Under the pieces are notes generated by a model. That model saw only the letters and a list, made by a program, of their open reading frames with translations, had not been told where the DNA came from and made no database searches. The translations under genes and the position numbers were made by a program. Positions 10,633 through 36,282 of a stretch of 36,282 nucleotides of DNA are shown here, piece after piece. Every line of letters begins with the position of its first letter. Position 1 is the first letter of the stretch. The DNA comes from a virus. Where the stretch lies: positions 1 through 36,282 of the IMG/VR virus record IMGVR_UViG_3300045988_138021. One strand, 5' to 3'.

Positions 10633-10634
10633 CC

Positions 10635-12316: not shown

Positions 12317-12353
12317 GAAAATCAGACATAACCGAGATTGGAGAAAATCGAAC

Positions 12354-13060: not shown

Positions 13061-13083
13061 ATAGCGTATTTCATCTATGGAGG

Positions 13084-18490: not shown

Positions 18491-18495
18491 ACCGA

Positions 18496-19599: not shown

Positions 19600-19614
19600 A
19601 AGGAGGGCGAAAAT

Positions 19615-20643: not shown

Positions 20644-20649
20644 TTGAGT

Positions 20650-21015: not shown

Positions 21016-21016
21016 T

Positions 21017-22966: not shown

Positions 22967-22969
22967 ATC

Positions 22970-23290
22970 ATGGCACAGGCTGAAATCCGTGGCTTGCTAG
23001 AGGACGGGCGCGCCCCGTCCACACTGAAAGCTGAAATTCAGGAGATGATTACCGCCGCCGCCGGTGGTGGTGTCACTACCGAGACAGTCGCTAAGGCGCT
23101 GGGTGTTCATATTGTGCGCAGCACTACCCGCCCGCCCGCTACCATGCACGGCGTACCGACTATCTGGATTAACCCCGCGCTGGAAGGTGCGCTACAGCCG
23201 GTACCCACGTTCACGCTCAAGGAGAACGGCGCTATCTTGGAGATTGTTACTCCCGAACCGGCGGGTGGTGCAATGAATGACAACCTATGA
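22970..23290 (+). CDS. Hypothetical protein (106 aa), tail-fibre region
   Basis: GAAAGGAAGG RBS. Confidence 0.6.
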   Translation: MAQAEIRGLLEDGRAPSTLKAEIQEMITAAAGGGVTTETVAKALGVHIVRSTTRPPATMHGVPTIWINPALEGALQPVPTFTLKENGAILEIVTPEPAGGAMNDNL

Positions 23291-24302: not shown

Positions 24303-24843
24303 TTTTCGTATCCCGACCCTGAACGCGGCGGGTGAGTTCACCGGCTCCGCTCTTGCGCACATTCAGAAGGTGGCGAGCGCGGCGGGCGGCGGCGGTGGCA
24401 CCGCTACCGTTCGAGATACCGGGTGGCGGCGTGTTGATTCGCCTAATCTCGCTTCTGGTTCCGTGTTTTTCCGCCGTGTCGATAACCTTGTTTCTGTTAC
24501 GGTTCGCGGCGGTTCTTGGGATACGGCTACTATTAAGCCGTCGGCCTCGCGCGCACCTAACGGTAGTCCGTTCGGTGACCTGGGTTATCGTGCCCGCCTC
24601 GCGATTAACATTCTTCCTGGGTTCCGTGCGCTAACCCCTGTTGTTGCGCCCGTGATGACTGATGACGGCGAGTCGGTGGGGATGCTGATTATGTCGAATC
24701 CGTCGGACGGCAACCGCCTGTCTTTCCGTGGCTTCCGCAACGGGCAGAAACAGGATGTAGCTAACGTCTATTTGCGGTTCCCTATTCTCACGTGGATTAC
24801 GTCTGAGGATTGGCCGGCCGAGCTACCCGGCGAACCGGCTTAG
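24295..24843 (+). CDS. Minor tail protein, candidate receptor-binding head
   Basis: 182 aa from ATG 24295 (GGAGG upstream; overlaps the upstream stop). Gly run AAGGGGGT followed by a beta-rich domain. Last gene before the lysis cassette. Confidence 0.5.
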   Translation: MSNFRIPTLNAAGEFTGSALAHIQKVASAAGGGGGTATVRDTGWRRVDSPNLASGSVFFRRVDNLVSVTVRGGSWDTATIKPSASRAPNGSPFGDLGYRARLAINILPGFRALTPVVAPVMTDDGESVGMLIMSNPSDGNRLSFRGFRNGQKQDVANVYLRFPILTWITSEDWPAELPGEPA

Positions 24844-24903
24844 CCCCCGTCTAGGGCGGGTGTATCATGAAAAAGAATATTCATTCTACAGAAAGAAACA
24901 CCA

Positions 24904-25389
24904 TTGCCGCCTAATTTTTTTGACCCTATCGCGGCTAGCTTCTGGGACATGCTACAGCTGGGCATTGGCGCAGCTGTAACCACGCTAACCATTAAATTTA
25001 GTGGCTGGCAGTCCACGAAAAAAAAGGAATTAGCAGAGCGGCGGGTAAAAGACGCCGAGATTATGGCGCGCCTGGATGAGCTGGCAAATCAGAGCCAAGC
25101 GGTGAAATCCGAGGTCAAGAATAGCCACGGTACAAATTTGCGCCATGATCTGGACGTGGCTATCAAGAGTGCTACCGAGGCACGCGATAATTCGACGCAG
25201 GCGCTAAAGATTGTCAAGCAGATTAGCGATTCTTTGGAGTCGCTAACCGTCGATTTTCGGGAATCCAAGCGCGAACATATCGATTTTCGCGAGCGCCATA
25301 ATCAGAGCACGGAAGAGATTCATGACCTCAATAAGCGAGTGAACGCTCTATTTTCTGCACAGAACAAGAAGGAGAATAACCATGAGTAA
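24904..25389 (+). CDS. Membrane-anchored coiled-coil protein, lysis-cassette associated
   Basis: One N-terminal hydrophobic segment (FWDMLQLGIGAAVTTLTI), then a charged helical region. Overlaps the endolysin start. The start is TTG 24904 or ATG 24949. Confidence 0.6.
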   Translation: MPPNFFDPIAASFWDMLQLGIGAAVTTLTIKFSGWQSTKKKELAERRVKDAEIMARLDELANQSQAVKSEVKNSHGTNLRHDLDVAIKSATEARDNSTQALKIVKQISDSLESLTVDFRESKREHIDFRERHNQSTEEIHDLNKRVNALFSAQNKKENNHE

Positions 25390-25975
25390 CTACGTGGACA
25401 TTACCCACTGGAACGCCACGTCTTTCACGGCGGCGAACCGTACCATTGACGACATTGATACTATCGTCATTCATCACTGGGGTGTTGATGGTCAGAAGTT
25501 TGATGACGTGTGCCGCTTCTTCCAGAACGGCCCGGGTACTAGTGCCCATTATGTCGTTGAAGCTGGTAAGTGCGCGCAGCTGGTCGAATTGAAGGATATC
25601 GCGTGGCACGCGGGCGATTGGAATGCGAACGCTCGTTCTATTGGCATTGAGTGCCGCCCTGAGATGAGTGATGCTGACTTCGAGACTCTGGCGCACGTCA
25701 TTGCGGATATCGAGACTTTCTACGGCAAGAGCTTCTACATTCACGGTCACAAGGATTATTTCAACACGGCGTGTCCGGGCCGCTGGTATGACCAGCTTGA
25801 CCACCTGATCGAGCGCGTGAATGAGATTGAAGCTGGCATTGATAATGCACCGGCTCCGCTGTCTCATGCTGAGGTGGACGAGAAGCGCGCCGCCTGGGAA
25901 AAGCTCATGCAGGAGCTGGAGGAGGCTAAGGCCGCCGGTGTGGAAGTCGGTAAGTGTCTGGCACAGGTAAACTAA
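25382..25975 (+). CDS. Endolysin, N-acetylmuramoyl-L-alanine amidase (Amidase_2/PGRP fold)
   Basis: IVIHHWG, SAHYVV, AWHAGDWNANARSIGIE and HGHKDY..TACPG fit the His/His/Cys zinc-ligand pattern of T7-lysozyme-type amidases. Confidence 0.9.
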   Translation: MSNYVDITHWNATSFTAANRTIDDIDTIVIHHWGVDGQKFDDVCRFFQNGPGTSAHYVVEAGKCAQLVELKDIAWHAGDWNANARSIGIECRPEMSDADFETLAHVIADIETFYGKSFYIHGHKDYFNTACPGRWYDQLDHLIERVNEIEAGIDNAPAPLSHAEVDEKRAAWEKLMQELEEAKAAGVEVGKCLAQVN

Positions 25976-26006
25976 AACGTTCGTTCTATTTTTTGGAGGT
26001 CTGATT

Positions 26007-26225
26007 ATGAACGAAACTCAGCGTAAGGCAATTTATGCCTTTGTTACCGCGCTTATCCCCGTCGGTATCGTGTACGGTATCGTGACTCAGGAGCAGGCGG
26101 CGGTTATCGTGCCCGCTATCCTGGCTGGCCTGTCGCTTATCATGGCTTACGTGCATGTGCCCGCGCCGGGCGACAAGCAGCAGGACGCGCCCGCCGTGGA
26201 CGATAGCGAGCGCGGCGGCGTGTAG
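26007..26225 (+). CDS. Holin (72 aa, two transmembrane segments, charged C-terminus)
   Basis: GGAGG RBS. Segments AIYAFVTALIPVGIVYGIV and AAVIVPAILAGLSLIMAYV, then an acidic tail. Adjacent to the endolysin. Confidence 0.75.
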   Translation: MNETQRKAIYAFVTALIPVGIVYGIVTQEQAAVIVPAILAGLSLIMAYVHVPAPGDKQQDAPAVDDSERGGV

Positions 26226-26276
26226 CGTGCTATAATTGCTGTGTTCCTTATCAATTGTTCCAGTGATGGGCAGTGA

Positions 26277-26317
26277 AACACCCCCTAGTTTCGTGGTTGG
26301 TTCTAGGGGGTGTTTTT
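26277..26317. terminator. Strong intrinsic terminator between convergent gene blocks
   Basis: 12-bp stem AACACCCCCTAG / CTAGGGGGTGTT, 14-nt loop, T-run on the + strand. It sits between the holin (+) and 26329-26583 (-). Confidence 0.8.
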
Positions 26318-26328
26318 CTATGCCTGGG

Positions 26329-26583
26329 CTAGGTGAAGTCCCGCCGGTTAGCGCGTACAACGAATACGCACGGGGTGAAGCCGTCGTATGCCGCCCTGTA
26401 GCGGGGGTACTGGGTTCGACATAGCATTTCCACCGTGTTGCCGGTGAACTTCGCAGCAATAACACGGTACCGCGCGCCGGTCTCCGTTTCGTAGCTGGTT
26501 ACCCATTTCGAGGCGGCGAAGCCCGGGTAGCGGGCGGCTATATCCCCGCCGTACTCATAGCCGCGTTCTTCGAGGTCAAGCAT
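26329..26583 (-). CDS. Hypothetical protein (84 aa)
   Basis: Start overlaps the stop of the upstream minus-strand gene; part of a tightly packed four-gene minus-strand block. Confidence 0.6.
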   Translation of the reverse strand: MLDLEERGYEYGGDIAARYPGFAASKWVTSYETETGARYRVIAAKFTGNTVEMLCRTQYPRYRAAYDGFTPCVFVVRANRRDFT

Positions 26584-26969
26584 TAGTACGCCCCCCGTTC
26601 TAGCGCCTTTTCGAGCGTGTCCAGAGTTTCCAACAACACGGGCAGCTTGTCCGCCCTGTCCAGATGGTACCCGAAATACAGGAGCTTGATAAGCGCGGTA
26701 ATTTGCAGGCTCCGAGGGGCGCGCCGCGCCTTGTCTAGGAATTTATCGGCGGCTTCGAGTGCTCCGGGCGACGGGACGGGCGCGCCCTCTAGGTGAAGCT
26801 CAAGGCATCGGCGGGCTTTGCGAATGTCTTCCGCTCCGCCCTTTTTCTTGCATCGCCAAACATATTTAATGGCCGCTCCGAGGAAATAGGGCGCTTCCAT
26901 GATGAGCGGTTCAAGCTCTAGCCCCTGAATCTTGCTGTAGTGCTTCGGGTTGATCGGGTCGTGAACCAT
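26583..26969 (-). CDS. DUF3310-like protein
   Basis: INPKHYSK...LGAAIKYVWRCKKKGGAEDIRKARRCLE resembles the conserved DUF3310 pattern (PxHY...IKYxxR...DLxKA). Confidence 0.6.
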   Translation of the reverse strand: MVHDPINPKHYSKIQGLELEPLIMEAPYFLGAAIKYVWRCKKKGGAEDIRKARRCLELHLEGAPVPSPGALEAADKFLDKARRAPRSLQITALIKLLYFGYHLDRADKLPVLLETLDTLEKALERGAY

Positions 26970-27511
26970 TAGATGCCTTCCTTCTCAAGTTCAAGAATTA
27001 GGGTGTGGGCGTTTAGCGCCTTGAGCTGTAGCCATGCCGGGTTGGTGGTATCGGTAAGAATCGCGGTGAGCCGGTCAATCGTCGCCGTGTACGGGCTATC
27101 AGTCTTAACCGGCGCAGGCTTAGCAGGCTTTGCCTTAGCCGCCTTAGCGGGCTTTGCAGGCGGTGCCAGATACGCGGCGGTTAGAGCCTGTACGGTGGTT
27201 TCTACCACCTTAAGCGCTTTGTTGCGACCGGGCGCGCGGGATACCTTGAGAAATTCCAGAGCCTCCGCGTAGGTGAAATGCCACGCGGCGCTAGTAATCT
27301 TGATGCCCGCGTCGCCTACGGCGTTCGGCGGGTAGTTGAACTTTTCGCCGGTGCCCGGGTGGTTTGCCAGGTAGGAGTTTAGGGCTGCACCGGGTGCCTT
27401 GATGCCCGCCGCTTGGAGCAGGGCAAACGCGCGGATCCAGATTACGCCGTCGTCTTCGACGTAGAAGGTCACGGGTTTGTTGTTGATGGTTTCGTGGTGG
27501 AGACGGGGCAT
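26969..27511 (-). CDS. Hypothetical protein (180 aa) with a Pro/Ala/Lys-rich linker
   Basis: Internal ATG (MPRLHH) with GAAAGGAAA upstream, one nt after the RusA stop, is preferred over the 27613 start. Linker PPAKPAKAAKAKPAKPAPVK. Confidence 0.65.
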   Translation of the reverse strand: MPRLHHETINNKPVTFYVEDDGVIWIRAFALLQAAGIKAPGAALNSYLANHPGTGEKFNYPPNAVGDAGIKITSAAWHFTYAEALEFLKVSRAPGRNKALKVVETTVQALTAAYLAPPAKPAKAAKAKPAKPAPVKTDSPYTATIDRLTAILTDTTNPAWLQLKALNAHTLILELEKEGI

Positions 27512-27512
27512 T

Positions 27513-27935
27513 TTAGCGTTTCCTTTCGTTGTAGATTTGGGTGAGGTGGATGTGTACGCCGGGGTTTTCGCCGTATTCCTTGGTGGCTTCGAGGCGGTGG
27601 CATCGTGCGTCATCTTCGATTATGCCGCCACTGGTCAATGAATCCATGACCGCGCGGGTGAGCTTGTCGATATCGGGTTTTACGGCGTGTATCGGGTCTA
27701 GCGTGCCCTGGTAGAGCGCGCCGCTCTTCGGCTCTGTGAAGACGAATCGTAGCGAGGCTTGGAATGCTCCGACGATTAGCGGCGCTCCGACCGCCTGGCT
27801 GGTCTTGAGGTGGTGTTTACGCATGGTTTCGCGCCACGGTTTAGTTCGTGGGTTATCCTCAATGACGCGCTTTCCGTAAGTGCGTTTAGAGCCTTGGGGG
27901 GCGGGTACGCCGGGTATGAAGGTCTTGTAGTGCAT
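27513..27935 (-). CDS. rusA: RusA-type Holliday junction resolvase
   Basis: PGVPAPQGSKR near the N-terminus and KPDIDKLTRAVMDSLT..GIIEDDARC match RusA family motifs; 140 aa. Confidence 0.85.
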   Translation of the reverse strand: MHYKTFIPGVPAPQGSKRTYGKRVIEDNPRTKPWRETMRKHHLKTSQAVGAPLIVGAFQASLRFVFTEPKSGALYQGTLDPIHAVKPDIDKLTRAVMDSLTSGGIIEDDARCHRLEATKEYGENPGVHIHLTQIYNERKR

Positions 27936-27961
27936 CGTCTGGTTTTCCTTTCGACATTTAC

Positions 27962-27991
27962 ACTATAAACCTAGATGCGGGGTGGACACAA
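27962..27991 (-). promoter_or_regulatory. Promoter cassette copy M (drives the minus-strand island)
   Basis: On the minus strand: TTGTGT, 18 nt ending in AGGTT, TATAGT, then GTAAATGT. Same spacing and flanks as the four plus-strand copies. The short leader runs to a GAAAGGAAAA RBS. Confidence 0.65.
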
Positions 27992-28186
27992 GGCTAGGTA
28001 CTGTGAGTATAGTCACTCTTACGGAATGAACATATACACCTTATATGTGGTATGATTAGTAGTGCCAAGATTGCAAGTGATAGGGTTTTGTCTCTCCAAT
28101 TGTTTTCTTTCGGCTTTGGGTTAAATACCTCTCTAGTCTGCGGATTAGGGGGGTATTTTTTTGCCCGAAAGTGCCCGATACCACCC

Positions 28187-28301
28187 CCTAATTTGGTACC
28201 CCTACCAATTCAGGGGGTACCTGATTTGGTAGGGGGGTCTACCCAATTCAGGGGGTACACCCCCCCCTGATTTGGTAGGGGGGTCTACCCAATTCAGGGG
28301 G
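28187..28301. repeat. Iteron-like repeats (origin candidate)
   Basis: A perfect 36-nt direct repeat at 28220-28255 and 28266-28301 (period 46), with a degenerate copy at 28187-28217. Each unit is an imperfect palindrome, CCTGATTTGGTA...TACC(C)AATTCAGG, flanked by G5-G8/C8 runs. Confidence 0.75.
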
Positions 28302-28309
28302 GGGAAATA

Positions 28310-28356
28310 GAAGTATCTAAATTGAAGTTAAATAAATTGAAGTATCTAAATCGAAG
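28310..28356. repeat. AT-rich repeat block (DNA-unwinding-element candidate)
   Basis: GAAGTATCTAAAT at 28310-28322 and 28339-28351. ATTGAAG / ATCGAAG occurs three times. This is the most AT-rich stretch in the region, directly after the iterons. Confidence 0.6.
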
Positions 28357-28484
28357 ACGCGCGCGGGGCGCGGCGTGTGAGATTGCGAGCTACCCCCCCC
28401 CGGTGCTATGCTGAAAAAGCAAACCCAAACAGCCCGAAAAGAAACCATTACCAGTAATCAAAAAATTTGTTAGGAGAGAAAACC

Positions 28485-29393
28485 ATGAGTATTAACTCAA
28501 TCCTGGCAGCAGGATACGTTACCCACAGCCCCGCCGGTGAACCCCTCACCACTGCACAAATGGCGACCTTGAAAGCCCTTGCTTTCTGCACCGGCGAGCA
28601 CTCCAATGCGTGCTACCCCGCTGTGCAGACCCTCCGAGAAATGACAGGTGTTAGCGTGAACACGATTCGCGCGGCACTGAAAGACCTTGACACTATGGGC
28701 TTTATCACCCGTACCCGCCGCGCTGGCACTTCCACGGTCTACACCTTGCAGATTGGCGCTATGCGTGCTACCCACCGCCGCCGCCGCTGGACTGAAACCC
28801 GGGACACTGGAAACCCGTACACGGGCGACCCTAACGCCGTAACCGCCGTAGATGAAATCCCCGTCGAGGAACAGTCGGTAAATGTCAAGCGCATCAACTT
28901 TGCAGAAGCCCGGGTAGAGCCGGTAGAGGAAACCCCCGCCCCGGTACCCGCTGTACCCGCGCCGGCCAAGAAGACCAAGAAGAAGGGCAGCACCCCCGCC
29001 CGCGTAGAATCCGACTTCCTGGACTTCTACGCCGCATACCCGCGCCATGTGGGAAAAGAAGCCGCGCGCCGCGCGTTTGAGAAGGCCGTGAAGGCCGGAA
29101 CGCCCGCCGCCGATATTGTCGAGAGTGCCCGCCGCTACGCCGCCGCTACCGCCGCCGCTGGCACTGAAACCCGCTACGTGGCACACCCGGCGACCTGGCT
29201 AAACGCGGGGCGTTGGAATGATGACATGGAAGATGCCGCGCCGGTTGAGCTTACCCCCTGGCAGAAGAAGGCCGCGCGCCTCGTGCAGTCTATGCAGGCC
29301 GCCGCCGTGGTGAATAACGCGCCCGCGCTTACCGGCGGGGCACCCGCTACCACGCCCGCCGAACCCCTGGCTATCGAACCGGGCTACATCTAA
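28485..29393 (+). CDS. Replication initiator / replisome organiser (N-terminal HTH)
   Basis: ATG 28485 with GGAGAG upstream. HTH-like CYPAVQTLREMTGVSVNTIRAALKDLDTMGFITRTRR. The C-terminal FLDFYAAYPRHVGKEAARRAFEKA...HPATWLNAGRWNDD block is common in phage replication proteins. Directly downstream of the iterons. Confidence 0.6.
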   Translation: MSINSILAAGYVTHSPAGEPLTTAQMATLKALAFCTGEHSNACYPAVQTLREMTGVSVNTIRAALKDLDTMGFITRTRRAGTSTVYTLQIGAMRATHRRRRWTETRDTGNPYTGDPNAVTAVDEIPVEEQSVNVKRINFAEARVEPVEETPAPVPAVPAPAKKTKKKGSTPARVESDFLDFYAAYPRHVGKEAARRAFEKAVKAGTPAADIVESARRYAAATAAAGTETRYVAHPATWLNAGRWNDDMEDAAPVELTPWQKKAARLVQSMQAAAVVNNAPALTGGAPATTPAEPLAIEPGYI

Positions 29394-29404
29394 GGAGCGG
29401 CGAC

Positions 29405-29869
29405 ATGAACAAGCAAGAATGCGCAACGTTCTACGCACAAGCGGCAAAGGTTGATAGCCGCCTCCCTGATCGTGAATTTGATGAGTTCGACGCTTGGGAA
29501 ATGCTTCTAGCCGACATTCCCCCCAAGTTCGCGCCTATGATTTTTCGCGAAATCTACCGCCACGTTCAGGTTCAGCAGCTACAACCTGGCCATATTGTCG
29601 AGGCGTGGGAAACCGTTCGTAAGAACGTAAACGCCGCTATCGCCCGGTGCCAGTCTTTCGAGAAGCGCACGCGCGAGCTGGACGTGTCAGACCGTGAAGA
29701 TGCCACGAAATTTAACGAGATTGTGGAAGCGCATAACTCCGCTGTGGACGCGCTACCGGTTGAGGTAGCGGCGGCTAATGGGTTTAGCCGTAAGGAGCTG
29801 GTACCTGTACCGGGTGAACGCAAGCCCGCGCCCGCCCCGGCGTGGTTTAAGTCACTGCAAAAAAGTTAG
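29405..29869 (+). CDS. Hypothetical protein (154 aa), replication-module neighbour
   Basis: AAGGAG RBS; no NTPase motif seen. Confidence 0.7.
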   Translation: MNKQECATFYAQAAKVDSRLPDREFDEFDAWEMLLADIPPKFAPMIFREIYRHVQVQQLQPGHIVEAWETVRKNVNAAIARCQSFEKRTRELDVSDREDATKFNEIVEAHNSAVDALPVEVAAANGFSRKELVPVPGERKPAPAPAWFKSLQKS

Positions 29870-29877
29870 GTTCTGGC

Positions 29878-29934
29878 TTGCGCCGGGCTTCTAAGTAGGT
29901 TTACACTATAAATGTAAGGCAAAGGAAGCCCTAC
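29878..29934 (+). promoter_or_regulatory. Promoter cassette copy A with leader hairpin
   Basis: TTGCGC (29878), 18 nt, TACACT (29902), ATAAAT, then GTAAGG (29914-29919) pairing with CCCTAC (29929-29934, one mismatch), then CCCAAACCGAAAGGAA and ATG 29962. Confidence 0.65.
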
Positions 29935-29961
29935 AAAACACCCAAACCGAAAGGAACCGAG

Positions 29962-30372
29962 ATGTTCAACCTCACCGCAAACCCCGCCAATGACCGCTAC
30001 CTCACCGCAGACCTGGGCGGCGACACCACCAATGTAAAGCTTCTGGTATGCCCCGATTACGTGGCAGGCACCCATTACGTGATGATTGACCACAAGAGTG
30101 CTATGAAGCTTGCAAACCCCAAGAAGCCCGGTAAGTGGATTCAGGAACTCCGAAATGGACTACGACAGCACAACGGTGCGGCTCAGCTCTGGAGCACCAC
30201 ACCCGAACCCGGTAAGGGTGCGCTAGTCACCGCATGGAAGACCGAGGACGCAATTAACTATCTCGACCTTGATAACGTGATCCGCGCTATCGAAGACCGC
30301 GCCCCCGCATCACACAAGCCTAACGCCGCTATTCTCCGAGACCTCAAGCGTGAGATTGTAGGCGGCATCTAA
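29962..30372 (+). CDS. Hypothetical protein (136 aa), promoter-proximal gene of unit A
   Basis: CGAAAGGAA RBS 7 nt upstream; followed by a GC hairpin. Confidence 0.75.
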   Translation: MFNLTANPANDRYLTADLGGDTTNVKLLVCPDYVAGTHYVMIDHKSAMKLANPKKPGKWIQELRNGLRQHNGAAQLWSTTPEPGKGALVTAWKTEDAINYLDLDNVIRAIEDRAPASHKPNAAILRDLKREIVGGI

Positions 30373-30397
30373 CCCCCGCCGGTTACCGGCAACTAAC

Positions 30398-30421
30398 GCC
30401 CCGCCCCTCACCGGGCGGGGC
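30398..30421 (+). terminator. 24-nt GC hairpin GCCCCGCCC-CTCACC-GGGCGGGGC (attenuator/terminator candidate)
   Basis: 9-bp all-GC stem with no U-tract. Identical to 36118-36141 and the reverse complement of 34248-34271. Confidence 0.5.
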
Positions 30422-30442
30422 GCACACCACCGAAAGAAGGAC

Positions 30443-30658
30443 ATGATGAAGACACTCATCACCCGCTACCCGCGAACCATCGGGTACACCGTAATAGCAG
30501 CACTACAGCTCACCGCATTTTTCGCGGCCATGCTGAATAACCGGCTAGACCCGGCGCACATCTCAAACGTGCTTCTCTCCGTAATCGTCGTGTGCTGTGG
30601 CTTTGAAATTGACATGCTAAAGCTTGAGAAGAAGGATACCCCCCCCCGTGAAAATTAA
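30443..30658 (+). CDS. Small membrane protein (71 aa, two hydrophobic segments)
   Basis: CGAAAGAAGG RBS. Segments TIGYTVIAALQLTAFFAAML and ISNVLLSVIVVCCGF. Confidence 0.65.
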   Translation: MMKTLITRYPRTIGYTVIAALQLTAFFAAMLNNRLDPAHISNVLLSVIVVCCGFEIDMLKLEKKDTPPREN

Positions 30659-30665
30659 CACTCTC

Positions 30666-31562
30666 ATGCGCCGCGCCGTACCCGCGCCCGCCCCCGGCTC
30701 CGACGAATGGAAGCGCAAGATTACCGCCTCCAAGGTGGCATCTGTGGTCTGTAAAAGCCCCTGGACTTCCAAGTTTGCACTACACGCTGAGATGACCGGC
30801 CGCTACGAGGCAGACCCGATTAACCCGGCGGTATTGGAAGCCGGTAACCTACTGGAACCGGCGGTAGCGGATTGGTTTCAGCTGCACAACCCCGGGGTAG
30901 AAGTCCGTGAGTGCAAGAAGCGCAACACTCCCGTATGGTGGGTGGCGCGCGACAATGAAGACTTTGCCGCTACCCCTGACCGTATCCTAGTCGATAAAGC
31001 GACGGGTGAAGTTACCGCGCTACTGGAAATCAAGACCGCGCGCGTCGCCTCCGAATGGGGTGAAGAGGGTACCGAAGAAATCCCCGAGCACTACCGCCTA
31101 CAGGCGCTTTGGCAGATGAAATGCACCGGCGTGCGAACTGTTATTTTCGCTGTGCTGCACGCCGGGCTGAGGTTCGCTACATATCGCGTCGAGTGGGACT
31201 ATGCAGATATTGCGTGGCTTACGGCTGAGGCAGAGGTTTTTATGAACGCGGTACGCACCGGAAAGACACCCGATTACAAGGAAGAGCCGGGCGCGTTCTC
31301 GACCTATGAGGTGTTTAGGTATTATTTCCCTGAGTGCAACGGTGAAGCTGTGATGTTGAGTGATGATCTGGTATACCGTACCCGCCGGGCAAAGCGCCTA
31401 AAGCGATTGGCCGCGCGTGCTGAGGATATCGTCAAGAATGAGCTAACCGCCGTTATGGGGAACGCGAGCGCGGGCGTTGATTACGCGAACCGCACGGTAG
31501 CGCGCCGTTCACAGCGAAAGACCCCCAAGGGGTTTAGCCGCCCGTGGGTGACTATGGTCTAG
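30666..31562 (+). CDS. YqaJ-type (lambda Exo-like) recombination exonuclease
   Basis: GSDEWKRKITASKVASV, EAGNLLEP, ATPDRIL, LLEIKTA and EHYRLQALWQMKCTG match the YqaJ/PD-(D/E)xK pattern. ATG 30666 preferred over TTG 30624. Confidence 0.85.
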   Translation: MRRAVPAPAPGSDEWKRKITASKVASVVCKSPWTSKFALHAEMTGRYEADPINPAVLEAGNLLEPAVADWFQLHNPGVEVRECKKRNTPVWWVARDNEDFAATPDRILVDKATGEVTALLEIKTARVASEWGEEGTEEIPEHYRLQALWQMKCTGVRTVIFAVLHAGLRFATYRVEWDYADIAWLTAEAEVFMNAVRTGKTPDYKEEPGAFSTYEVFRYYFPECNGEAVMLSDDLVYRTRRAKRLKRLAARAEDIVKNELTAVMGNASAGVDYANRTVARRSQRKTPKGFSRPWVTMV

Positions 31563-31611
31563 GCAGCTGTAGCGGCGCTGGAAAATTTTCTAAATTTTTT
31601 CCGGTTTGGGC

Positions 31612-31684
31612 TTGTTTTCCCCTCATAAATAGGTTTATACTATAAATGTAAGGAAGAACAAAGACACCAAGTCGGAAACCTTAC
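31612..31684 (+). promoter_or_regulatory. Promoter cassette copy B with leader hairpin
   Basis: TTGTTT (31612), 18 nt, TATACT (31636), ATAAAT, then GTAAGG (31648-31653) pairing with CCTTAC (31679-31684). AT-rich upstream block GAAAATTTTCTAAATTTTTT at 31581-31600. Confidence 0.65.
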
Positions 31685-31710
31685 AACCCAAACCGAAAGG
31701 AAAACGAATC

Positions 31711-32082
31711 ATGGAACTCACCGCTAAGGACTTCACCGCCCGCCTCGCGGAGAAGGGTTACACCCCCGGTATTGACTTCGACGCAGATAACGGCGACGAA
31801 CCGAACACCGTGAAGCTCACCGGCGCTATCACTTTCAACGGCGCAGATGGTTTTATGGACTTCCGCAACGCAGAGGAATACTACGACATCACGTGTGCAG
31901 AGTATGAAGACCTCGCAATGTTCACTAAGACCTACGACCTGACCGAGGCACAGGTTACCGAAATCGAGACCGGCGGCGAACCCAGCAACGCAGAACAGGA
32001 AGAAAAGTTCTTCGACGCATGGCGTGCAGCTCTCGACGGTATCGGTATCGACCTGAACGACATCAAGGTTTCCAGCCGCTAA
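31711..32082 (+). CDS. Strongly acidic hypothetical protein (123 aa), promoter-proximal gene of unit B
   Basis: CGAAAGGAAAA RBS. By my count about 28 Asp/Glu against about 10 Lys/Arg. Confidence 0.75.
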   Translation: MELTAKDFTARLAEKGYTPGIDFDADNGDEPNTVKLTGAITFNGADGFMDFRNAEEYYDITCAEYEDLAMFTKTYDLTEAQVTEIETGGEPSNAEQEEKFFDAWRAALDGIGIDLNDIKVSSR

Positions 32083-32107
32083 GCACCGCACATAACCACC
32101 GATAACC

Positions 32108-32147
32108 GCCGGGCGGAGGTACTTCCGAATACCCGCCGCCGCCCGGC
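32108..32147 (+). terminator. GC hairpin after the first gene of unit B
   Basis: GCCGGGCGG (32108-32116) pairs with CCGCCCGGC (32139-32147); 22-nt loop; followed by ATTT. Confidence 0.45.
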
Positions 32148-32176
32148 ATTTACCACCACCGAAAGGAACCTACACC

Positions 32177-32995
32177 GTGAGCACTGAAATTCAGCAATTC
32201 ACAGGCACCGCTCTACAGGTAAAGAATGATTTTGTAGATCCCATCAAGAACGCGATTACCGGCGCGTTACCGCTATTCATGCGTGAAGACTCCGAGGCCT
32301 GGATTAGGGGCGCAATTCTGGAGGTTAGCAAGACTCCGCAGCTTGTCCAGTACGCCAAAAACAATTTTCCAGCATTTGCAGGCACGCTAACCCGTGTCGC
32401 CGCGCTGGGTTTACCGCTCAACCGTGACATGGTGTACGTGCTCCCCTTTGCATCGAAACAGGGGATGCAGGCCAACGTTATCATGGGTTGGCGCGGTGAG
32501 CTTGAACTCATTTATCGCGCGGGCAACGTCGAGACCGTCCACCATGAAGAAATCTTTGAGAATGACCGGTACGAATGGAGGGACGGCGCCCCCCGCCTTA
32601 TCGCTCCCGCCCCGGAAGGGCAGCGCGGCAAAATCAAGCACGCCGTAGCATGGGCTGTCTTGAAGAGCGGCAAAATCAGCCAATACGCGGTTGTGAGTGC
32701 CGACCGCATCGCCGCCGCCAAGAAAGCATCACGCGGCTCTAACTCCCCGTCTAGCCCCTGGGTACAACACGAGGTAGCAATGTGGCGCAAAACGGCAATT
32801 CATGAGCTGGCTAATTTCGTGGACTCAAGTGTAGAGGAGTGCCGCCCGGAACGCCTGGAAGCCATGAAGACCCGCGCCGCCCTAGCGCTGGACGTGGAGC
32901 GCGAAAAAACCGCGCGTATGGAAGCGGAAAACCGCGCCCTTGAACTCAAGCTAAAGCTAATGGAACTGGAAGCAAAGAAGAAGGAGGAAAGCTAA
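32177..32995 (+). CDS. recT: RecT-family single-strand annealing protein
   Basis: VYVLPFASKQGMQANVIMGWRGELELIYRAGNVETVHHEEIFENDRYEW fits the RecT core. GTG start with a GAAAGGAA RBS. Partnered with the YqaJ exonuclease. Confidence 0.85.
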   Translation: MSTEIQQFTGTALQVKNDFVDPIKNAITGALPLFMREDSEAWIRGAILEVSKTPQLVQYAKNNFPAFAGTLTRVAALGLPLNRDMVYVLPFASKQGMQANVIMGWRGELELIYRAGNVETVHHEEIFENDRYEWRDGAPRLIAPAPEGQRGKIKHAVAWAVLKSGKISQYAVVSADRIAAAKKASRGSNSPSSPWVQHEVAMWRKTAIHELANFVDSSVEECRPERLEAMKTRAALALDVEREKTARMEAENRALELKLKLMELEAKKKEES

Positions 32996-33321
32996 TGACT
33001 CTAGACGCTCACCGCGTAGACCATGTGCGCAATTTCGATTTTTCAAAGATCCCTAGCGGCTGGTCACTTCTTGCTGAACGCATGGTGCGATACGCCGCAT
33101 TGCACGCCGATTCGCGCGGTGTACTGAACATCAACCGGAAAACTTTTTTTGCTGAGTCAGTTGGTGAAAAGAGCGCACAATACGAGGCAAACCTAATCAA
33201 CGCGATTAACCGCAAGGTGGACGGCGTTACATTTTCTACCGTTGGACGCGGTTCAAGCGCCCGCCTTGTAATCGTCTTTGATGACGAAAAAATCAGTAAG
33301 AGCATGGAAAAGAAGGGTTAG
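32995..33321 (+). CDS. Hypothetical protein (108 aa)
   Basis: AAGGAGGAAA RBS; ATG overlaps the RecT stop. Confidence 0.7.
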   Translation: MTLDAHRVDHVRNFDFSKIPSGWSLLAERMVRYAALHADSRGVLNINRKTFFAESVGEKSAQYEANLINAINRKVDGVTFSTVGRGSSARLVIVFDDEKISKSMEKKG

Positions 33322-33324
33322 AAC

Positions 33325-33876
33325 ATGTCTTCTACCGTAACAGTACTAGGAAATATTGGAGCGGATGCAGAGCGACGCGAAACACAGAACGGAACCCCGT
33401 ATCTCACGTTCACCGTTGCGGATTCACGCTCTAAATGGGACGCGGCCGCCGGTAAGTATGTCACGCTAAATACGACGTGGCGACGCGTAACCACCTTTAA
33501 GGGGTTGGACTATTTGCCCGATCAGCTTGTCAGGGGTGCGACCGTCTACGTATCCGGTAGCGAAGAATTGCGCACCTGGGACAAAGAGGACGGGACGAAG
33601 GGTTACAGCCTGGATGTTATGGCGCATGTGGTGAAGGTGGTATCAAAGTCCACCGATAGCGGGGCACCCGCGCAGGTTCAGACTCAGCCGGTGCAGGGTT
33701 ACCCGGCGGCGAACACCCCGGTTGCACAGCCCGGTTATGCGCAGCAGGGACAGCAGGGACAGCCGCCCGCCACGTATGCACAGCCCGCGCAGGCCGCGCC
33801 GCCCGCTGGTTATGCCGCCGCCACTAACGCTTCGAGCGGTTGGGTTGGATACGATAACGGGGCGACCCCGTTCTAG
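33325..33876 (+). CDS. ssb: Single-stranded DNA-binding protein
   Basis: OB-fold N-terminus VTVLGNIGADAERRETQNGTPYLTFTVA...WRRVTTF...VYVSGSEELRTW. Gly/Gln/Pro-rich linker and a C-terminal tip ending ATPF. Confidence 0.88.
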   Translation: MSSTVTVLGNIGADAERRETQNGTPYLTFTVADSRSKWDAAAGKYVTLNTTWRRVTTFKGLDYLPDQLVRGATVYVSGSEELRTWDKEDGTKGYSLDVMAHVVKVVSKSTDSGAPAQVQTQPVQGYPAANTPVAQPGYAQQGQQGQPPATYAQPAQAAPPAGYAAATNASSGWVGYDNGATPF

Positions 33877-33889
33877 ATCCGATAGCCAG

Positions 33890-33920
33890 AACCCCCGGTG
33901 AATAATCGCCGGGGGTTTGG
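33890..33920 (+). terminator. Terminator after ssb
   Basis: AACCCCCGG pairs with CCGGGGGTT (10-nt loop), followed by TTGG. Confidence 0.55.
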
Positions 33921-33966
33921 CGTATCTAGGGCGCGAAAAAAAGTTTGAAAAATCTTTGATTCTGGC

Positions 33967-34023
33967 TTGCTTTCCACCCCACACAAGGTTTACGCTATAA
34001 ATGTAAGGCAACGAAGACCTTAC
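33967..34023 (+). promoter_or_regulatory. Promoter cassette copy C with leader hairpin
   Basis: TTGCTT (33967), 18 nt, TACGCT (33991), ATAAAT, then GTAAGG (34003-34008) pairing with CCTTAC (34018-34023). Confidence 0.65.
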
Positions 34024-34051
34024 AAAAACCCAAACCCGAAAGGAAACCCCA

Positions 34052-34231
34052 ATGTTGGAGTACTACGAAATCCAGGAATACGTTACCGAGGTAGCAGCAG
34101 GTAACTACCCGTTCCGAGTAATCGACGCGGTAACCGCCGATATTTACGAACGCGGTATAGCCGTCGAGATGGAAGACCTCAAGGCTTACCCGCGAACCCG
34201 TGAACTTCTCAAGATTCACAACGCGGCCTAA
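34052..34231 (+). CDS. 59-aa acidic protein, promoter-proximal gene of unit C (not in the ORF track), paralogue of 35923-36102
   Basis: Hand translation MLEYYEIQEYVTEVAAGNYPFRVIDAVTADIYERGIAVEMEDLKAYPRTRELLKIHNAA*. CGAAAGGAAA RBS. Same length and position as the unit D gene. Confidence 0.7.
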   Translation: MLEYYEIQEYVTEVAAGNYPFRVIDAVTADIYERGIAVEMEDLKAYPRTRELLKIHNAA

Positions 34232-34247
34232 CAACCAACCAACCTAC

Positions 34248-34271
34248 GCCCCGCCCGGTGAGGGGCGGGGC
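34248..34271 (+). terminator. 24-nt GC hairpin, inverted copy (loop GGTGAG)
   Basis: GCCCCGCCC-GGTGAG-GGGCGGGGC is the exact reverse complement of 30398-30421. Confidence 0.5.
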
Positions 34272-34285
34272 ACCCCTAGCAAATC

Positions 34286-34693
34286 ATGGCAAATCAGTTT
34301 TACAAATCAGAGACATGCGCACAGTGTGGCAGCCCCTGGGAAAAACCCGATCTGGTCAATTGCCGCCGGTGCAAACAGCGCGAACTCAAACGCGCCCGCA
34401 CCCGCCGCAAAAAGGCAGAGAAAGCGGGTGAGCTAGAGCGCAAGCGCAAAAACAAGGAATGGGCGGCGACCCATTGCTACATTTGCGGTTCGCTTATGGA
34501 TAATCCAGACCCCAAATGCTACCGGTGCCGCGAACGCATCAAGCGCCGCGAAAAATGGCTAGAACGCCGCGCCGAACGCATGAAACCGAACGACCTGAAC
34601 AACCTAGAAGGCGTGAGGAAGTTCCTACAGGCGCGCCGCCGCCGTCTCAACCAAGACCCCAACACCCCCCCCATCGAAGGAATCGACACATGA
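34286..34693 (+). CDS. Arg/Lys-rich double zinc-ribbon protein (135 aa)
   Basis: Two CxxCG...CxxC units (CAQCGSPWEKPDLVNCRRC and CYICGSLMDNPDPKCYRC) separated and followed by highly basic helices (RARTRRKKAEK, KRREKWLERRAERMK). Confidence 0.75.
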   Translation: MANQFYKSETCAQCGSPWEKPDLVNCRRCKQRELKRARTRRKKAEKAGELERKRKNKEWAATHCYICGSLMDNPDPKCYRCRERIKRREKWLERRAERMKPNDLNNLEGVRKFLQARRRRLNQDPNTPPIEGIDT

Positions 34694-34905
34694 AAGACCC
34701 CATCACCGGGCGACCCCTAACCATCGTCGCCGCCGCGCTCGCAACTGTACCGACCGGCTTTTTTCTCGCCACGCTCATCACCGGCGCAGGTGTGAACATC
34801 GGCAGCTCTATTCTCACCCTCGCTACGTGGTGGCTAGGCGTGGTAATCGTCGCTATCTTTGAATCCAACCCGCGCCCCGCGCGAACCAACCGAGAGGAAC
34901 ACTAA
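34690..34905 (+). CDS. Small membrane protein (71 aa, two hydrophobic segments)
   Basis: ATGA overlap with the upstream stop. Segments LTIVAAALATVPTGFFLATLI and ILTLATWWLGVVIVAIF. The N-terminal extension of ORF-track 34516 was rejected. Confidence 0.65.
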   Translation: MKDPITGRPLTIVAAALATVPTGFFLATLITGAGVNIGSSILTLATWWLGVVIVAIFESNPRPARTNREEH

Positions 34906-34907
34906 CC

Positions 34908-35546
34908 ATGCAGATTATCGAATGGGAAAAATACAAGGCACCCGCCCGACTCTGGCACATCGTCACTACCGAGGCGGTAGACAAGCGGCGCACCACGGCT
35001 ATTATTTTCGCTGACACCCCGGCGAAAACCTACATTTCGCTTGTCGCCGCCGCTGAAATCGCAGGCGTAAGTGAAACCGGCGTACGCGACTATCTCAAGA
35101 AGCACGGCGCGCGGCCTAAGCTATTCACCGTCCCGGCTAACGTCAATCACACCGGACAGGCGCGAAAAATGGCGTTTATCGACCCGCTTACCATGTTCCA
35201 TATTCTCTTAGAGGTAGACCCGCGCGAACAGAGCGTTAGGGGTTGGTTCCATGACCTAACACACTTCGACGGCGACGAAATCCCCAAATTCTGGGGCATG
35301 ACGAATGTTCGAGAGGCGGCGATTATCGAAGATAAGGCGCGCGAAATCGAACTACTGGAAATTCCAGACTTTACCCCGCCCGCCCGCGTCGAGTTTGACG
35401 CTACCGGCGGCATCGAGCAGCTGAACCGCATCATCTCAGATCTGAACGCCCCGTACCATGTGCGAGTGAAGGCATTGCAGATTCAGCATGAGGTGAATCA
35501 GCTTGCTAATACCGTAGACAAGCTGAATGAAGGAAAGGACGCATAA
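34908..35546 (+). CDS. Putative DNA-binding protein (HTH-like segment)
   Basis: GAGAGGAA RBS. ISLVAAAEIAGVSETGVRDYLKKHG resembles a helix-turn-helix. C-terminal coiled coil. Confidence 0.5.
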   Translation: MQIIEWEKYKAPARLWHIVTTEAVDKRRTTAIIFADTPAKTYISLVAAAEIAGVSETGVRDYLKKHGARPKLFTVPANVNHTGQARKMAFIDPLTMFHILLEVDPREQSVRGWFHDLTHFDGDEIPKFWGMTNVREAAIIEDKAREIELLEIPDFTPPARVEFDATGGIEQLNRIISDLNAPYHVRVKALQIQHEVNQLANTVDKLNEGKDA

Positions 35547-35547
35547 A

Positions 35548-35790
35548 ATGCGTATGACTCGACAGATTATCAAGCTCTCAAGCTACCGCGTGAAGGGTGT
35601 AACTTTCGCCGTGGAATTTGATTACGACAAGCCCGGCGACCGCCGCGCTAAGATCGGGGCGGCCTTGAAGTCAATCATTGGTATTCATGAGCTGAATTAT
35701 CTGAGAAATCAGGCAATTAAGATTATGGGTAGCGGCGAATCTGCCCGTGAGGTCTGGAGCTATGAGGTGGTGGAGACTGAGGATATTTAG
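35548..35790 (+). CDS. Hypothetical protein (80 aa)
   Basis: ATG 35548 with GAAAGGA 9 nt upstream and just after the upstream stop; preferred over ATG 35527. Confidence 0.65.
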   Translation: MRMTRQIIKLSSYRVKGVTFAVEFDYDKPGDRRAKIGAALKSIIGIHELNYLRNQAIKIMGSGESAREVWSYEVVETEDI

Positions 35791-35825
35791 CCGAAAATTT
35801 TTCTAAAATTTTCTTGGTTTTTGGC

Positions 35826-35897
35826 TTGCATCTGACATCTCCATAGGTTTATACTATAAATGTAAGGGAAACAGAGAGGAACCCCTCAAAACCTTAC
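35826..35897 (+). promoter_or_regulatory. Promoter cassette copy D with leader hairpin
   Basis: TTGCAT (35826), 18 nt, TATACT (35850), ATAAAT, then GTAAGG (35862-35867) pairing with CCTTAC (35892-35897). AT-rich upstream block GAAAATTTTTCTAAAATTTTC at 35793-35813. Confidence 0.65.
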
Positions 35898-35922
35898 AAC
35901 CCAAACCGAAAGGAGCCCGCAA

Positions 35923-36102
35923 ATGCTGGCATGTCACGAAATTCTCGAATCCATCACCACCGCAGCACACGGCGAAATCGAACCCGCCGTTCTGGAAGCC
36001 GCGGCAACCGAAATTTGGGAAAACAACAGCTTCGAGACTATGGCAGATTTTGAAGCGTTTGAACAGACCTGGGAAATCGTCGCAAAGCACGACGCTAAGT
36101 AA
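35923..36102 (+). CDS. 59-aa acidic protein, promoter-proximal gene of unit D (not in the ORF track), paralogue of 34052-34231
   Basis: Hand translation MLACHEILESITTAAHGEIEPAVLEAAATEIWENNSFETMADFEAFEQTWEIVAKHDAK*. CGAAAGGAG RBS. 19 of 59 identical residues to the unit C protein in an ungapped alignment. Confidence 0.7.
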   Translation: MLACHEILESITTAAHGEIEPAVLEAAATEIWENNSFETMADFEAFEQTWEIVAKHDAK

Positions 36103-36117
36103 CCCCTAACCCAATAC

Positions 36118-36141
36118 GCCCCGCCCCTCACCGGGCGGGGC
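36118..36141 (+). terminator. 24-nt GC hairpin, identical to 30398-30421
   Basis: GCCCCGCCC-CTCACC-GGGCGGGGC, 16 nt after the stop of the 59-aa gene. Confidence 0.5.
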
Positions 36142-36174
36142 ACCCAAACCCCAAACCCGAAAGAAACAAACACC

Positions 36175-36282
36175 ATGACCCCGCGCCCTGGCATTATCGA
36201 CTTTTTCCGAGGCAACCGCACCACCGAACCCGTAATCACGGGTGAGCTGGTACCCGTAATCACGGGTGAGCTGGTACCCGTA
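36175..36282 (+). CDS. 5' part of the junction-spanning hypothetical protein (continues at nt 55 after overlap removal)
   Basis: ATG 36175 after CGAAAGAAAC. No stop before the window end. MTPRPGIIDFFRGNRTTE followed by PVITGELV repeats. Confidence 0.6.
   Translation, partial: MTPRPGIIDFFRGNRTTEPVITGELVPVITGELVPV
36229..36282. repeat. Right copy of the 54-nt end overlap
   Basis: Identical to nt 1-54; lies inside the ORF that starts at 36175. Confidence 0.95.

Follow-up and report, generated by a model that had tools for sequence, protein, structure and literature searches.

We describe four GC-only hairpins in a 36,282-nucleotide (nt) stretch of viral DNA, positions 1 to 36,282 of IMG/VR record IMGVR_UViG_3300045988_138021. 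This whole stretch is called the window, and all coordinates are those of the window. Each hairpin lies just behind the stop codon of a short open reading frame (ORF) that heads an operon, and none is followed by a U-tract. That the hairpins are selected structures is highly probable. Our preferred reading, to which sequence comparison leads us to give a probability of about 0.55, is that they would serve as mRNA attenuators or stabilisers, each closing an exchangeable slot for an orphan ORF (ORFan) at the head of an early operon. We present their anatomy, their conservation, their linkage to the first ORF and recurrent flips of their loops; action in RNA, and an attenuating or stabilising effect, are what we infer.

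Hairpins without a U-tract behind four first ORFs

A preliminary description made from the letters of this DNA had noted a recurrent layout: a promoter, one short ORF (136, 123, 59 and 59 amino acids (aa)) and a hairpin 15-25 nt after its stop codon. Checks of motifs, ORFs and folds agree with this layout in all four units (A to D), with gaps between stop codon and hairpin of 25, 25, 16 and 15 nt, respectively. The hairpins, all on the + strand, are:

30378..30390, +, small hairpin GCCGG-UUA-CCGGC before hairpin A (fold; conserved behind both alternative A ORFs)
30397..30422, +, hairpin A: 10 G-C pairs, loop CUCACC, no U-tract (exact match, fold)
32108..32147, +, hairpin B: other sequence, 9+3-pair stem, no U-tract (fold, relatives)
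34248..34271, +, hairpin C: stem of A and D, flipped loop (GGUGAG in the mRNA sense) (exact match, fold)
36118..36141, +, hairpin D: 24-mer identical to that of A (exact match, fold)
3658..3689, +, fifth GC hairpin without a U-tract, flanked by a conserved 203-aa gene and a variable slot for an ORF, not beside a promoter (fold)

The 24-mer GCCCCGCCCCTCACCGGGCGGGGC occurs at 30398-30421 (+), 34248-34271 (-) and 36118-36141 (+), and shuffled sequences gave no copies even with three mismatches. Exact matching thus bore out three like 24-mers, one of them as the reverse complement, and a different sequence at B. For hairpin A, 30398-30421 is correct as the position of the 24-mer, but the full stem is longer, with 10 pairs over 30397-30422. 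The hairpins have 9-10 G-C pairs and predicted energies between -23 and -27 kcal/mol. Hairpin B of the window is a damaged copy: relatives have an intact 12-bp stem, which is interrupted here by an A.G mismatch. Folding of the + strand gives the hairpin as the dominant structure, set in flanks that are poor in G and unstructured, with an ensemble frequency of 0.87-0.96 at C and D; for the - strand this frequency is 0.05-0.45. An unbiased 46-nt folding scan of the window was dominated by GC-rich coding sequence and was no help in ranking sites.

The bases after hairpins A to D are GCACACCACC, AUUUACCACC, ACCCCUAGCA and ACCCAAACCC, giving RNA tails GCACACC, AUUUACC, ACCCCUA and ACCCAAA. Only B has three U and none has a U-tract, as the preliminary description had said; the same is true of all ~47 hairpin instances read in relatives. 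A simple terminator scan of the window did not list hairpins A to D. Set against the canonical L-shaped terminator, these elements have the stable GC stem-loop and lack the U-tract immediately 3′ of it. They do have the form of I-shaped terminators, a strong GC hairpin with no U-tail at most ~50 nt 3′ of the stop codon (here 15-25 nt).

Two other identities were considered and rejected. Stems of 9-12 pairs are too short for an RNase III site of the T7 early type, which needs some 20 bp, or about two helical turns, of double-stranded RNA. An integron cassette would have a tyrosine integrase and a long imperfect attC with conserved R/L boxes; the element here is a 24-nt perfect palindrome, and there was no integrase match among the ORFs inspected.

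Conservation of the stem among relatives

Relatives were collected by 24-mer, RecT and promoter-motif searches, yielding ~25 non-redundant metagenomic contigs. Their DNA is 75-97% identical to the window over shared parts, their RecT proteins are 90-98% identical, and all have the same architecture. When the 24-mer was sought in these genomes, what proved to be conserved was the stem: GCCCCGCCC stands behind the short first ORF at 16/16 loci at site A, 18/18 at C and 12/12 at D (46/46 non-redundant loci). Three identical 24-mers are peculiar to the window, and the sites of relatives share the common stem with mostly different loops. Site B has its different, 12-bp hairpin behind the first ORF in 27/27 loci.

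At site C the core arms are identical in 18/18 loci, with zero diversity, and the 12-nt flanks differ at ~0.35 of compared positions. Loop variants include CTCACC, CTAACC, ATCACC, TTAACC, TAACC and CTAACCA/C. The spacing between core arms ranges from 5 to 11 nt, the extra bases arriving as G..C or GG..CC and lengthening the stem. Because these extra bases pair together, the variation in spacing fits a folded strand and not a duplex operator of fixed spacing. One compensatory change from G:C to U:A was found (L017, site D), and in one case (L062, site D) a U.G wobble pair forms in the + sense only.

Hairpins that are not homologous to one another, all without a U-tract, also occupy equivalent places. 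Besides site B, these are another GC hairpin at the fifth site in L012 and one in L075, an unrelated 292-kb contig (ERZ28634444 scaffold_4), where CCCCGGC-N7-GCCGGGG lies inside an operon, behind a homologue of the first ORF of unit B. Hairpins at the same positions in ~25 relatives, invariant arms beside variable loops and flanks, and such non-homologous substitutes support the earlier proposal that the hairpins are functional rather than chance.

The exact 24-mer is also present as one copy each in 19 unrelated high-GC bacterial genomes and four unrelated viral contigs, often with a U-tract in proteobacteria and often with extended stems in actinomycetes. Since these are single copies in unrelated taxa, the 24-mer is a generic strong hairpin that arose many times, not a lineage-specific mobile element. 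Its use as a pointer to a host or prophage was rejected on the same ground, as 19 single copies in unrelated high-GC taxa indicate convergence.

Recurrent flips of the loop

Because the stem is a perfect palindrome, copy C differs from A and D in its 6-nt loop only. The other 17 non-redundant genomes have the sense loop at site C, and GGTGAG occurs there in this window alone. What had been described as reuse of one element in both orientations is instead a loop flip within a palindrome and, judged from this distribution, the inverted copy of the window is one recent flip. Flipped loops were also found at site A (GGTGAT in L016 and L060, GGTTAG in L059) and at site D (GGTGGTTAGCC in L017 and L019), making at least four independent events in ~47 hairpin instances. 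Since flips recur, the DNA appears prone to inversion through the stem, with loop orientation under no strong selection, and the flips argue against a factor that reads the loop. An assembly artefact was rejected: k-mers that run from the flank through the arm into the loop are specific to one orientation, and flips were seen in more than one independent assembly.

Linkage of the first ORF and its hairpin

In several relatives the short ORF and the hairpin are missing together: at C in L017 and L019, at D in L012 and at A in L069. Where both are gone from unit C (L017 and L019) or unit D (L012), the ribosome-binding site of the leader abuts the next gene. Absence of the hairpin where the accessory ORF is absent argues against an obligatory antitermination checkpoint. 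Swaps of the first ORF keep the downstream hairpin. At A, the 136-aa ORF (A1) is replaced by an unrelated 120-aa ORF in L011, L064 and L070; at B, the 123-aa ORF (B1) is replaced by one of 91/92 aa in seven non-redundant relatives.

Rearrangements were also seen at GC-rich repeats. In L017 (1697-1777), a deletion runs between CCCCGCC, a microhomology in codons 7-9 of A1, and the hairpin arm. Unit C of L069 has a GCCCC tandem duplication, and in unit A of L062 the small and large A hairpins are fused.

Promoters and 5′ leaders

The four units share a promoter family and a stem-loop at the predicted 5′ end of the transcript:

29866..29923, +, promoter A (repeat family D4, exact core motif)
31600..31657, +, promoter B (repeat family, core motif)
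33955..34012, +, promoter C (repeat family, core motif)
35814..35871, +, promoter D (repeat family, core motif)
29914..29934, +, 5′ leader stem-loop A, GUAAGG..CCCUAC (folding of all leaders)
31648..31684, +, 5′ leader stem-loop B (leader folding)
34003..34023, +, 5′ leader stem-loop C (leader folding)
35862..35897, +, 5′ leader stem-loop D (leader folding)

The promoter core GGTTTAYRCTATAAATGTAAGG has exactly four copies, at 29898, 31632, 33987 and 35846, all on the + strand, and none appeared in shuffled sequences. This agrees with the initial observation that no new promoter motif lies within the units; we found there no extra core and, between a hairpin and the genes behind it, no convincing sigma-70-like site. 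The presumed elements of promoter A are a -35 TTGCGC (29878-29883), an 18-nt spacer, a -10 TACACT (29902-29907) and a start near G29914. If transcription starts ~7 nt past the presumed -10 (TAYRCT), the RNA would begin GUAAGG, and the leader folds pair this sequence, over a loop, with a CCUUAC farther downstream in all units of all relatives. The leader loops fall into at least four unrelated types of 7 to 25 nt, which are mixed between units and between genomes; the loop of unit D in the window, for example, is that of unit B in L007. On the 3′ side of the leader stem is a G-poor, CA-rich leader, CCCAAACCGAAAGGAA, with a ribosome-binding site. With this start, a stem-loop at the 5′ end and a GC hairpin at the 3′ end would enclose the first cistron. 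There are 13 copies of CCAAACCGAAAGGAA-like leaders, some directly behind hairpins, and a second copy of the CCCAAACCCGAAAG leader lies 3′ of hairpin D.

A degenerate promoter core at 27954-27992 (-) drives the leftward gene block. It comes without a leader stem-loop or an accessory ORF and is followed directly by CGAAAGGAAAACC and the start codon of a gene for 140 aa, RusA-like by eye. A promoter-pattern search also returned four more viral contigs (L039, L042, L047 and L055), all unrelated at the DNA level. Three of these, with 55% GC, have the exact core TTTACGCTATAAATGTAAGG in one conserved context (L042 at 1042, L047 on the - strand at 4493 and L055 at 5529).

U-tract terminators in the same genome

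Hairpins with a U-tract stand at operon ends at 26275-26316 (between convergent blocks) and 28123-28158 (followed by seven U). Another ends unit B:

33881..33926, +, terminator-like hairpin ending unit B (core 33890-33917, then GGGGGUUUGG; conserved in all relatives; weaker U-tract)

The transcription units of L075 end in U-tract terminators, followed by promoters. Because U-tract terminators close operons in the same genome, the U-less hairpins are a distinct class and not a local style. They sit where read-through is needed. As there is no promoter between the hairpins and the recombination genes, read-through is required and the hairpins cannot be efficient terminators; partial termination or mRNA stabilisation would fit this constraint.

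Genes of the four units

The genes, all on the + strand, are:

29962..30372, +, A1, first ORF of unit A, 136 aa, orphan (ORF call, Pfam/PHROG search)
30443..31562, +, distal genes of unit A: 71-aa membrane-like ORF and YqaJ/RecE-like exonuclease (30666-31562; Pfam YqaJ 1e-16, PHROG 434 5e-57)
31711..32082, +, B1, first ORF of unit B, 123 aa, pI 4.05, orphan (ORF call)
32177..33876, +, distal genes of unit B: RecT (32177-32995; Pfam RecT 6e-22, PHROG 148), 108-aa ORF and a 183-aa ORF resembling single-stranded DNA-binding protein (SSB) by eye only
34052..34231, +, C1, first ORF of unit C, 59 aa, acidic, paralogue of D1 (ORF call)
34286..35790, +, distal genes of unit C, including a basic double zinc-ribbon protein at 34286-34693 (ORF call, Pfam)
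35923..36102, +, D1, first ORF of unit D, 59 aa, pI 4.2 (ORF call)
36175..36282, +, start of the distal gene of unit D, 210 aa, continuing across the circular junction to window position 579

Three of the four first ORFs are strongly acidic. Apart from YqaJ, RecT and a sub-threshold match to DZR_2, no Pfam or PHROG family was found for the four first ORFs, the zinc-ribbon protein or the other unit proteins. C1 and D1 are paralogues with only 33% protein identity, yet their hairpin stems are identical. Changes between C1 and its counterpart in L007 are mostly synonymous which, together with the paralogy of C1 and D1, indicates that the first-ORF proteins are real.

B1, a compact acidic protein encoded just upstream of RecT, gave a confident AlphaFold2 (AF2) model with pLDDT 87 and pTM 0.80. 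Compared with the PDB, this model had no fold match better than E = 0.13, and as modelled the fold is apparently new. A role for B1 as a Gam-like DNA mimic found no support, the model being without a PDB fold match. Homologues of B1 occur only within the phage group and in a few long contigs. One of these, 76% identical, lies in the region 9500-11100 of L075, which is full of small orphan genes and long intergenic regions and has a jumbo-phage-like look. L075 also has similar promoters (TTGCAC-N17-TGTGGTAnTAT), 5′ stem-loops and GAAAGG ribosome sites, and a TnpB/Cas12f-like gene near the B1 homologue.

The zinc-ribbon protein had been put forward as a speculative RNA binder. This gained no support, as the protein has only the sub-threshold Pfam match to DZR_2 and is kept in relatives without hairpin C. 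Its gene stands behind hairpin C without a Shine-Dalgarno sequence (34272-34288, ACCCCTAGCAAATCATG), and in L017 and L019, which are without C1 and its hairpin, it is joined directly to the strong leader. On this comparison, insertion of the module should lower downstream translation.

The source genome

The first 54 bases of the window equal its last 54, giving a circularly closed assembly of ~36,228 bp. Because the assembly is circular, unit D runs over the junction into window positions 1-~4000. The 54-nt overlap, in the terminal regions 1-78 and 36205-36282, is part of a 24-nt tandem repeat, CCCGTAATCACGGGTGAGCTGGTA, from which the PVITGELV repeats of the 210-aa ORF (36175..579) are translated. 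L012 has one fewer CCCGTAATCACGGGTGAGCTGGTA repeat, and the copy number in the assembly may vary or be uncertain.

The phage is uncultivated and has a 36-kb, siphovirus-like genome. Terminase, portal, capsid, tape-measure and tail genes occupy the + strand from ~4.6 to 26 kb, followed by a short leftward block (~26.5-27.9 kb) and a rightward non-structural region that extends from 28.4 kb over the circular junction to ~4 kb. TerL shares 38-40% identity with the terminases of Arthrobacter and Microbacterium phages, and an actinobacterium is the probable host. The region had no megablast match among 50,697 GenBank phages, so no phage sequenced there is close at the DNA level. Searches of the whole window found no Rfam match at the gathering threshold, and a tRNA search found none.

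Other features lie away from the four hairpins. Just upstream of a 308-aa replication-initiator-like gene (28467/28486-29393), positions 28195-28304 hold iteron-like direct and inverted repeats (GGTACCCCTACCAATTCAGGGGG...) and are probably the origin of replication. The initiator-like gene has its own promoter-like site of a different type, TTGCGA-N17-TATGCT. A further promoter-like site, with an extended -10, lies at 28027-28056, ~100 nt before the textbook terminator at 28123-28158 with its seven U; with no convincing ORF between the two, 28027-28165 may encode a small RNA next to the origin. At the equivalent of 28123-28158, relatives carry a U-tract terminator of other sequence (L007 970-1000, L013 5993-6031, L019 5741-5780).

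At 4090-4126, a U-less GC hairpin (AGCCCCGGC...GCCGGGGCT) lies in a 150-nt gap before gene 4150-4458, which has HNH-endonuclease-like motifs (by eye) and adjoins the terminase genes; the hairpin may be near the packaging site. Between two tail-region genes, 12258-12302 forms a hairpin, CCCCGCCCGCCC ... GGGGCGGGCG, with a long U-rich loop and then a U-tract, and is likely a terminator or attenuator after a highly expressed structural gene. The tape-measure gene (13084-17574) has at least seven diverged 135-nt (45-aa) tandem repeats (15199-16131).

A model for the early operons

In the model that we favour, an early transcript would carry, in order, the 5′ stem-loop, the CA-rich leader, a small exchangeable accessory ORF and a stable GC hairpin without a U-tract. 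The hairpin would form the 3′ boundary of the accessory-gene segment. As a leaky I-shaped terminator, it would probably stop part of the polymerases, and it would probably also block 3′-to-5′ exonucleases after the downstream RNA is cut or released. The first ORF would in this way receive a message that is short, stable and abundant, with read-through transcripts supplying the exonuclease, RecT, the SSB-like protein and other core genes at a lower level. ORF and hairpin would form one module, inherited, lost or replaced as a whole, with conserved non-coding joints at its two sides: the promoter/leader and the hairpin.

Several observations weigh against this model. One stem variant (L011, site A) is a plain mismatch, and formal covariation was not significant, with 216/500 shuffles reaching the observed score; because the stems hardly vary, this test has no power. 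Gene conversion among sites, or a protein that recognises the stem, could instead account for its strict conservation. The evidence for linkage of ORF and hairpin comes from a few indel events, which are not phylogenetically independent, and the linkage has exceptions. L017 keeps hairpin A although the ORF is deleted, an alternative 140-aa ORF fills slot D without a hairpin (replacing D1 in L015 and L018), and the fifth hairpin follows a conserved gene and precedes the variable slot. Finally, U-less termination in actinobacteria is disputed: in the account given in PMC12288462, Czyz et al. 2014 concluded that the mycobacterial polymerase needs a U-tract.

Alternative explanations

It is possible, though unlikely, that leader and hairpin are mainly recombination joints, short conserved sequences for the exchange of accessory ORFs, with any RNA effect secondary or neutral. 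First ORFs are swapped exactly between leader and hairpin at sites A and B, entire modules of ORF and hairpin are present or absent, and with the second leader copy behind hairpin D, the module is flanked by direct repeats. A further variable ORF slot adjoins the fifth hairpin, leader loop types are mixed between units, and rearrangements occurred at GC repeats in L017, L069 and L062. The phage moreover encodes RecE/RecT-type proteins, and shuffling mediated by the PeSL elements of T4-type phages offers a precedent (PMC2839356). However, a 9-bp arm is a very short homology, and recombination leaves unexplained why pairing is kept or extended, why unrelated hairpins stand at equivalent sites, and why the hairpins always stand 15-25 nt 3′ of a stop codon, in the sense of transcription and with U-free tails. 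As exchange is compatible with a role in RNA, it is maybe a second consequence rather than an alternative; if the hairpins attenuate or stabilise mRNA, hairpin and leader may still act as gene-exchange joints.

The other alternatives are less likely than attenuation or stabilisation. Phage lambda has the order promoter, short gene, terminator and then essential genes in both pR-cro-tR1 and pL-N-tL1. The hairpins could likewise be terminators that divide an immediate-early first gene from delayed-early genes and are overcome by a lambda N-like protein or by a leader acting in cis like HK022 put. The layout of the units mirrors that of lambda, each unit has a conserved stem-loop at its predicted 5′ end, and unit C encodes a basic zinc-ribbon protein. 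We nevertheless consider such antitermination improbable. Relatives without the first ORF are also without the hairpin, yet keep the promoter, the leader and the downstream genes; the hairpin is thus dispensable when the first ORF is gone. There is no U-tract, and the free flipping of hairpin loops makes loop-specific recognition unlikely. The leader loop has at least four unrelated sequences, unlike put or boxB, where sequence matters. No equivalent of nut or put and no antiterminator was identified, and neither Pfam and PHROG searches of the unit proteins tested nor Rfam returned an antiterminator family. Equally doubtful is a timing switch in which the U-less hairpins would stop the host polymerase early, so that only the four ORFans are made, and a put-like leader or a phage protein such as the zinc-ribbon protein would later allow read-through, with ORFan and hairpin also forming a cassette-exchange unit. 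If true, such a switch would be of a kind not described for actinobacterial phages.

Still less probable is that the hairpins are nearly neutral leftovers, the terminators of genes acquired as morons, with their conservation due to close kinship and gene conversion. In favour of this, the 24-mer in 19 unrelated bacterial genomes and 4 viral contigs, often with a U-tract, looks like common currency; covariation was not significant; and three identical copies in one genome suggest homogenisation. However, flanks and loops have diverged substantially and the arms have not, stems are identical behind C1 and D1 (33% identical), stem extensions arise as paired changes, and ~47 instances contain no U-tract. 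A DNA-level element (a dimer operator, a cruciform or a single-strand hairpin in replication or priming) is very improbable since, although the palindrome is perfect, its arm sequence strongly conserved and the repeated flips show DNA forming or recombining through the hairpin (cf. PMC6824564), the arm spacing of 5 to 11 nt is incompatible with a fixed dimer operator, presence follows the accessory ORF and not replication genes, position is tied to stop codons and the direction of transcription, origin-like iterons lie elsewhere (28195-28304), and unrelated hairpin sequences substitute at equivalent sites.

Comparison with known systems

The ingredients of this system (U-less hairpins, stabilisers, morons, PeSLs, the SAS/ESAS layout and flip-flops) are each known. 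Among intercistronic stabilisers, such as the REP elements of Escherichia coli malEFG and the hairpin of Rhodobacter puf, a hairpin after the first cistron shields it from 3′ exonucleases and gives unequal expression, and a 5′-terminal stem-loop of the ompA type protects the 5′ end of a transcript. The layout here is similar to both and not homologous, with a putative effect. The order of promoter, short gene, termination signal and delayed genes is shared with lambda tR1/tL1 with N and with HK022 put. Morons, as described by Hendrix and colleagues, consist of a promoter, a gene and a terminator inserted between core genes. As in morons, an accessory gene with its own 3′ hairpin is present or absent between core genes of close relatives. 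Unlike morons, it has neither a private promoter nor a factor-independent terminator: the promoter stays when the ORF is gone and serves the whole operon, in which the accessory gene takes first place ahead of essential genes, and the hairpin is without the terminator U-tract.

There is a close likeness in form to actinobacterial 3′ ends that are I-shaped or lack U, with a stable GC stem-loop, no U-tail and a position at most 50 nt from the stop codon (PMC12288462; PMC8269248). Term-seq in Streptomyces found highly structured, U-lacking 3′ ends with intermediate read-through, of which the non-terminal ones tune levels within operons (PMC8269248), and mycobacteria have I-shaped terminators within 50 nt of stop codons (PMC12288462). 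Intermediate read-through and level setting within operons are reported there and predicted here from the DNA. The present hairpins differ in standing specifically behind promoter-proximal accessory ORFs, in a genome whose operon ends have U-tract terminators. With both hairpin types in one small genome, this phage would offer a natural test case for the disputed U-less hairpins of high-GC Gram-positives.

PeSLs of the T4-type phages RB49 and phi1 combine a strong early promoter, a G/C-rich stem-loop and a Shine-Dalgarno sequence, and flank non-essential ORFans (PMC2839356). Here too, repeated intergenic elements flank ORFans and bound the indels and replacements between close relatives. In PeSLs, however, one intergenic element of ~100 bp holds both promoter and stem-loop, the latter inside or adjacent to the promoter and effective as a terminator; in the window the ORF separates promoter and leader from the GC hairpin, which would be leaky, and the stem-loop beside the promoter is the 5′ leader stem, distinct from the GC hairpin. 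The present phage also differs from the T4-type phages in its 36-kb siphovirus-like genome and its probable actinobacterial host.

Cluster K mycobacteriophages have SAS and ESAS elements, with a 13-bp consensus, GGGATAGGAGCCC, at gene starts and 17-bp imperfect inverted repeats upstream, the function of ESAS being unknown (PMC3203893). Both systems place a short motif at translation starts in one orientation in the non-structural half of an actinophage or probable actinophage genome, and about half of the Cluster K motifs are preceded by an inverted repeat with a variable spacer. The consensus is different, CCAAACCGAAAGGAA here accompanying perfect 9-11-bp GC stems tied to the preceding stop codon, and the likeness is in layout only.

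Small flip-flop inversions occur at plastid DNA hairpins, as mentioned in PMC6824564, which cites Kelchner and Wendel 1996. In both cases a loop between perfect inverted repeats inverts repeatedly and independently and the stem is unchanged; the present flips differ in occurring in a phage lineage and at regulatory hairpins. They provide a clean small case of hairpin-mediated micro-inversion outside plastids.

In the literature searched for comparable elements, we found no description of this combination, with its linkage of ORFan and hairpin and its recurrent flips, in a probable actinophage. The findings do not overturn current understanding. If our model is true, they define a compact, conserved expression grammar of strong promoter, 5′ stem-loop, CA-rich leader, exchangeable ORFan, U-less hairpin and core genes. 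Such a grammar would flag tiny orphan genes made first and in quantity, which would be candidates for host take-over or anti-defence. It would also extend regulatory elements that double as gene-shuffling joints, as PeSLs do in T4-type phages, to an unrelated phage group.

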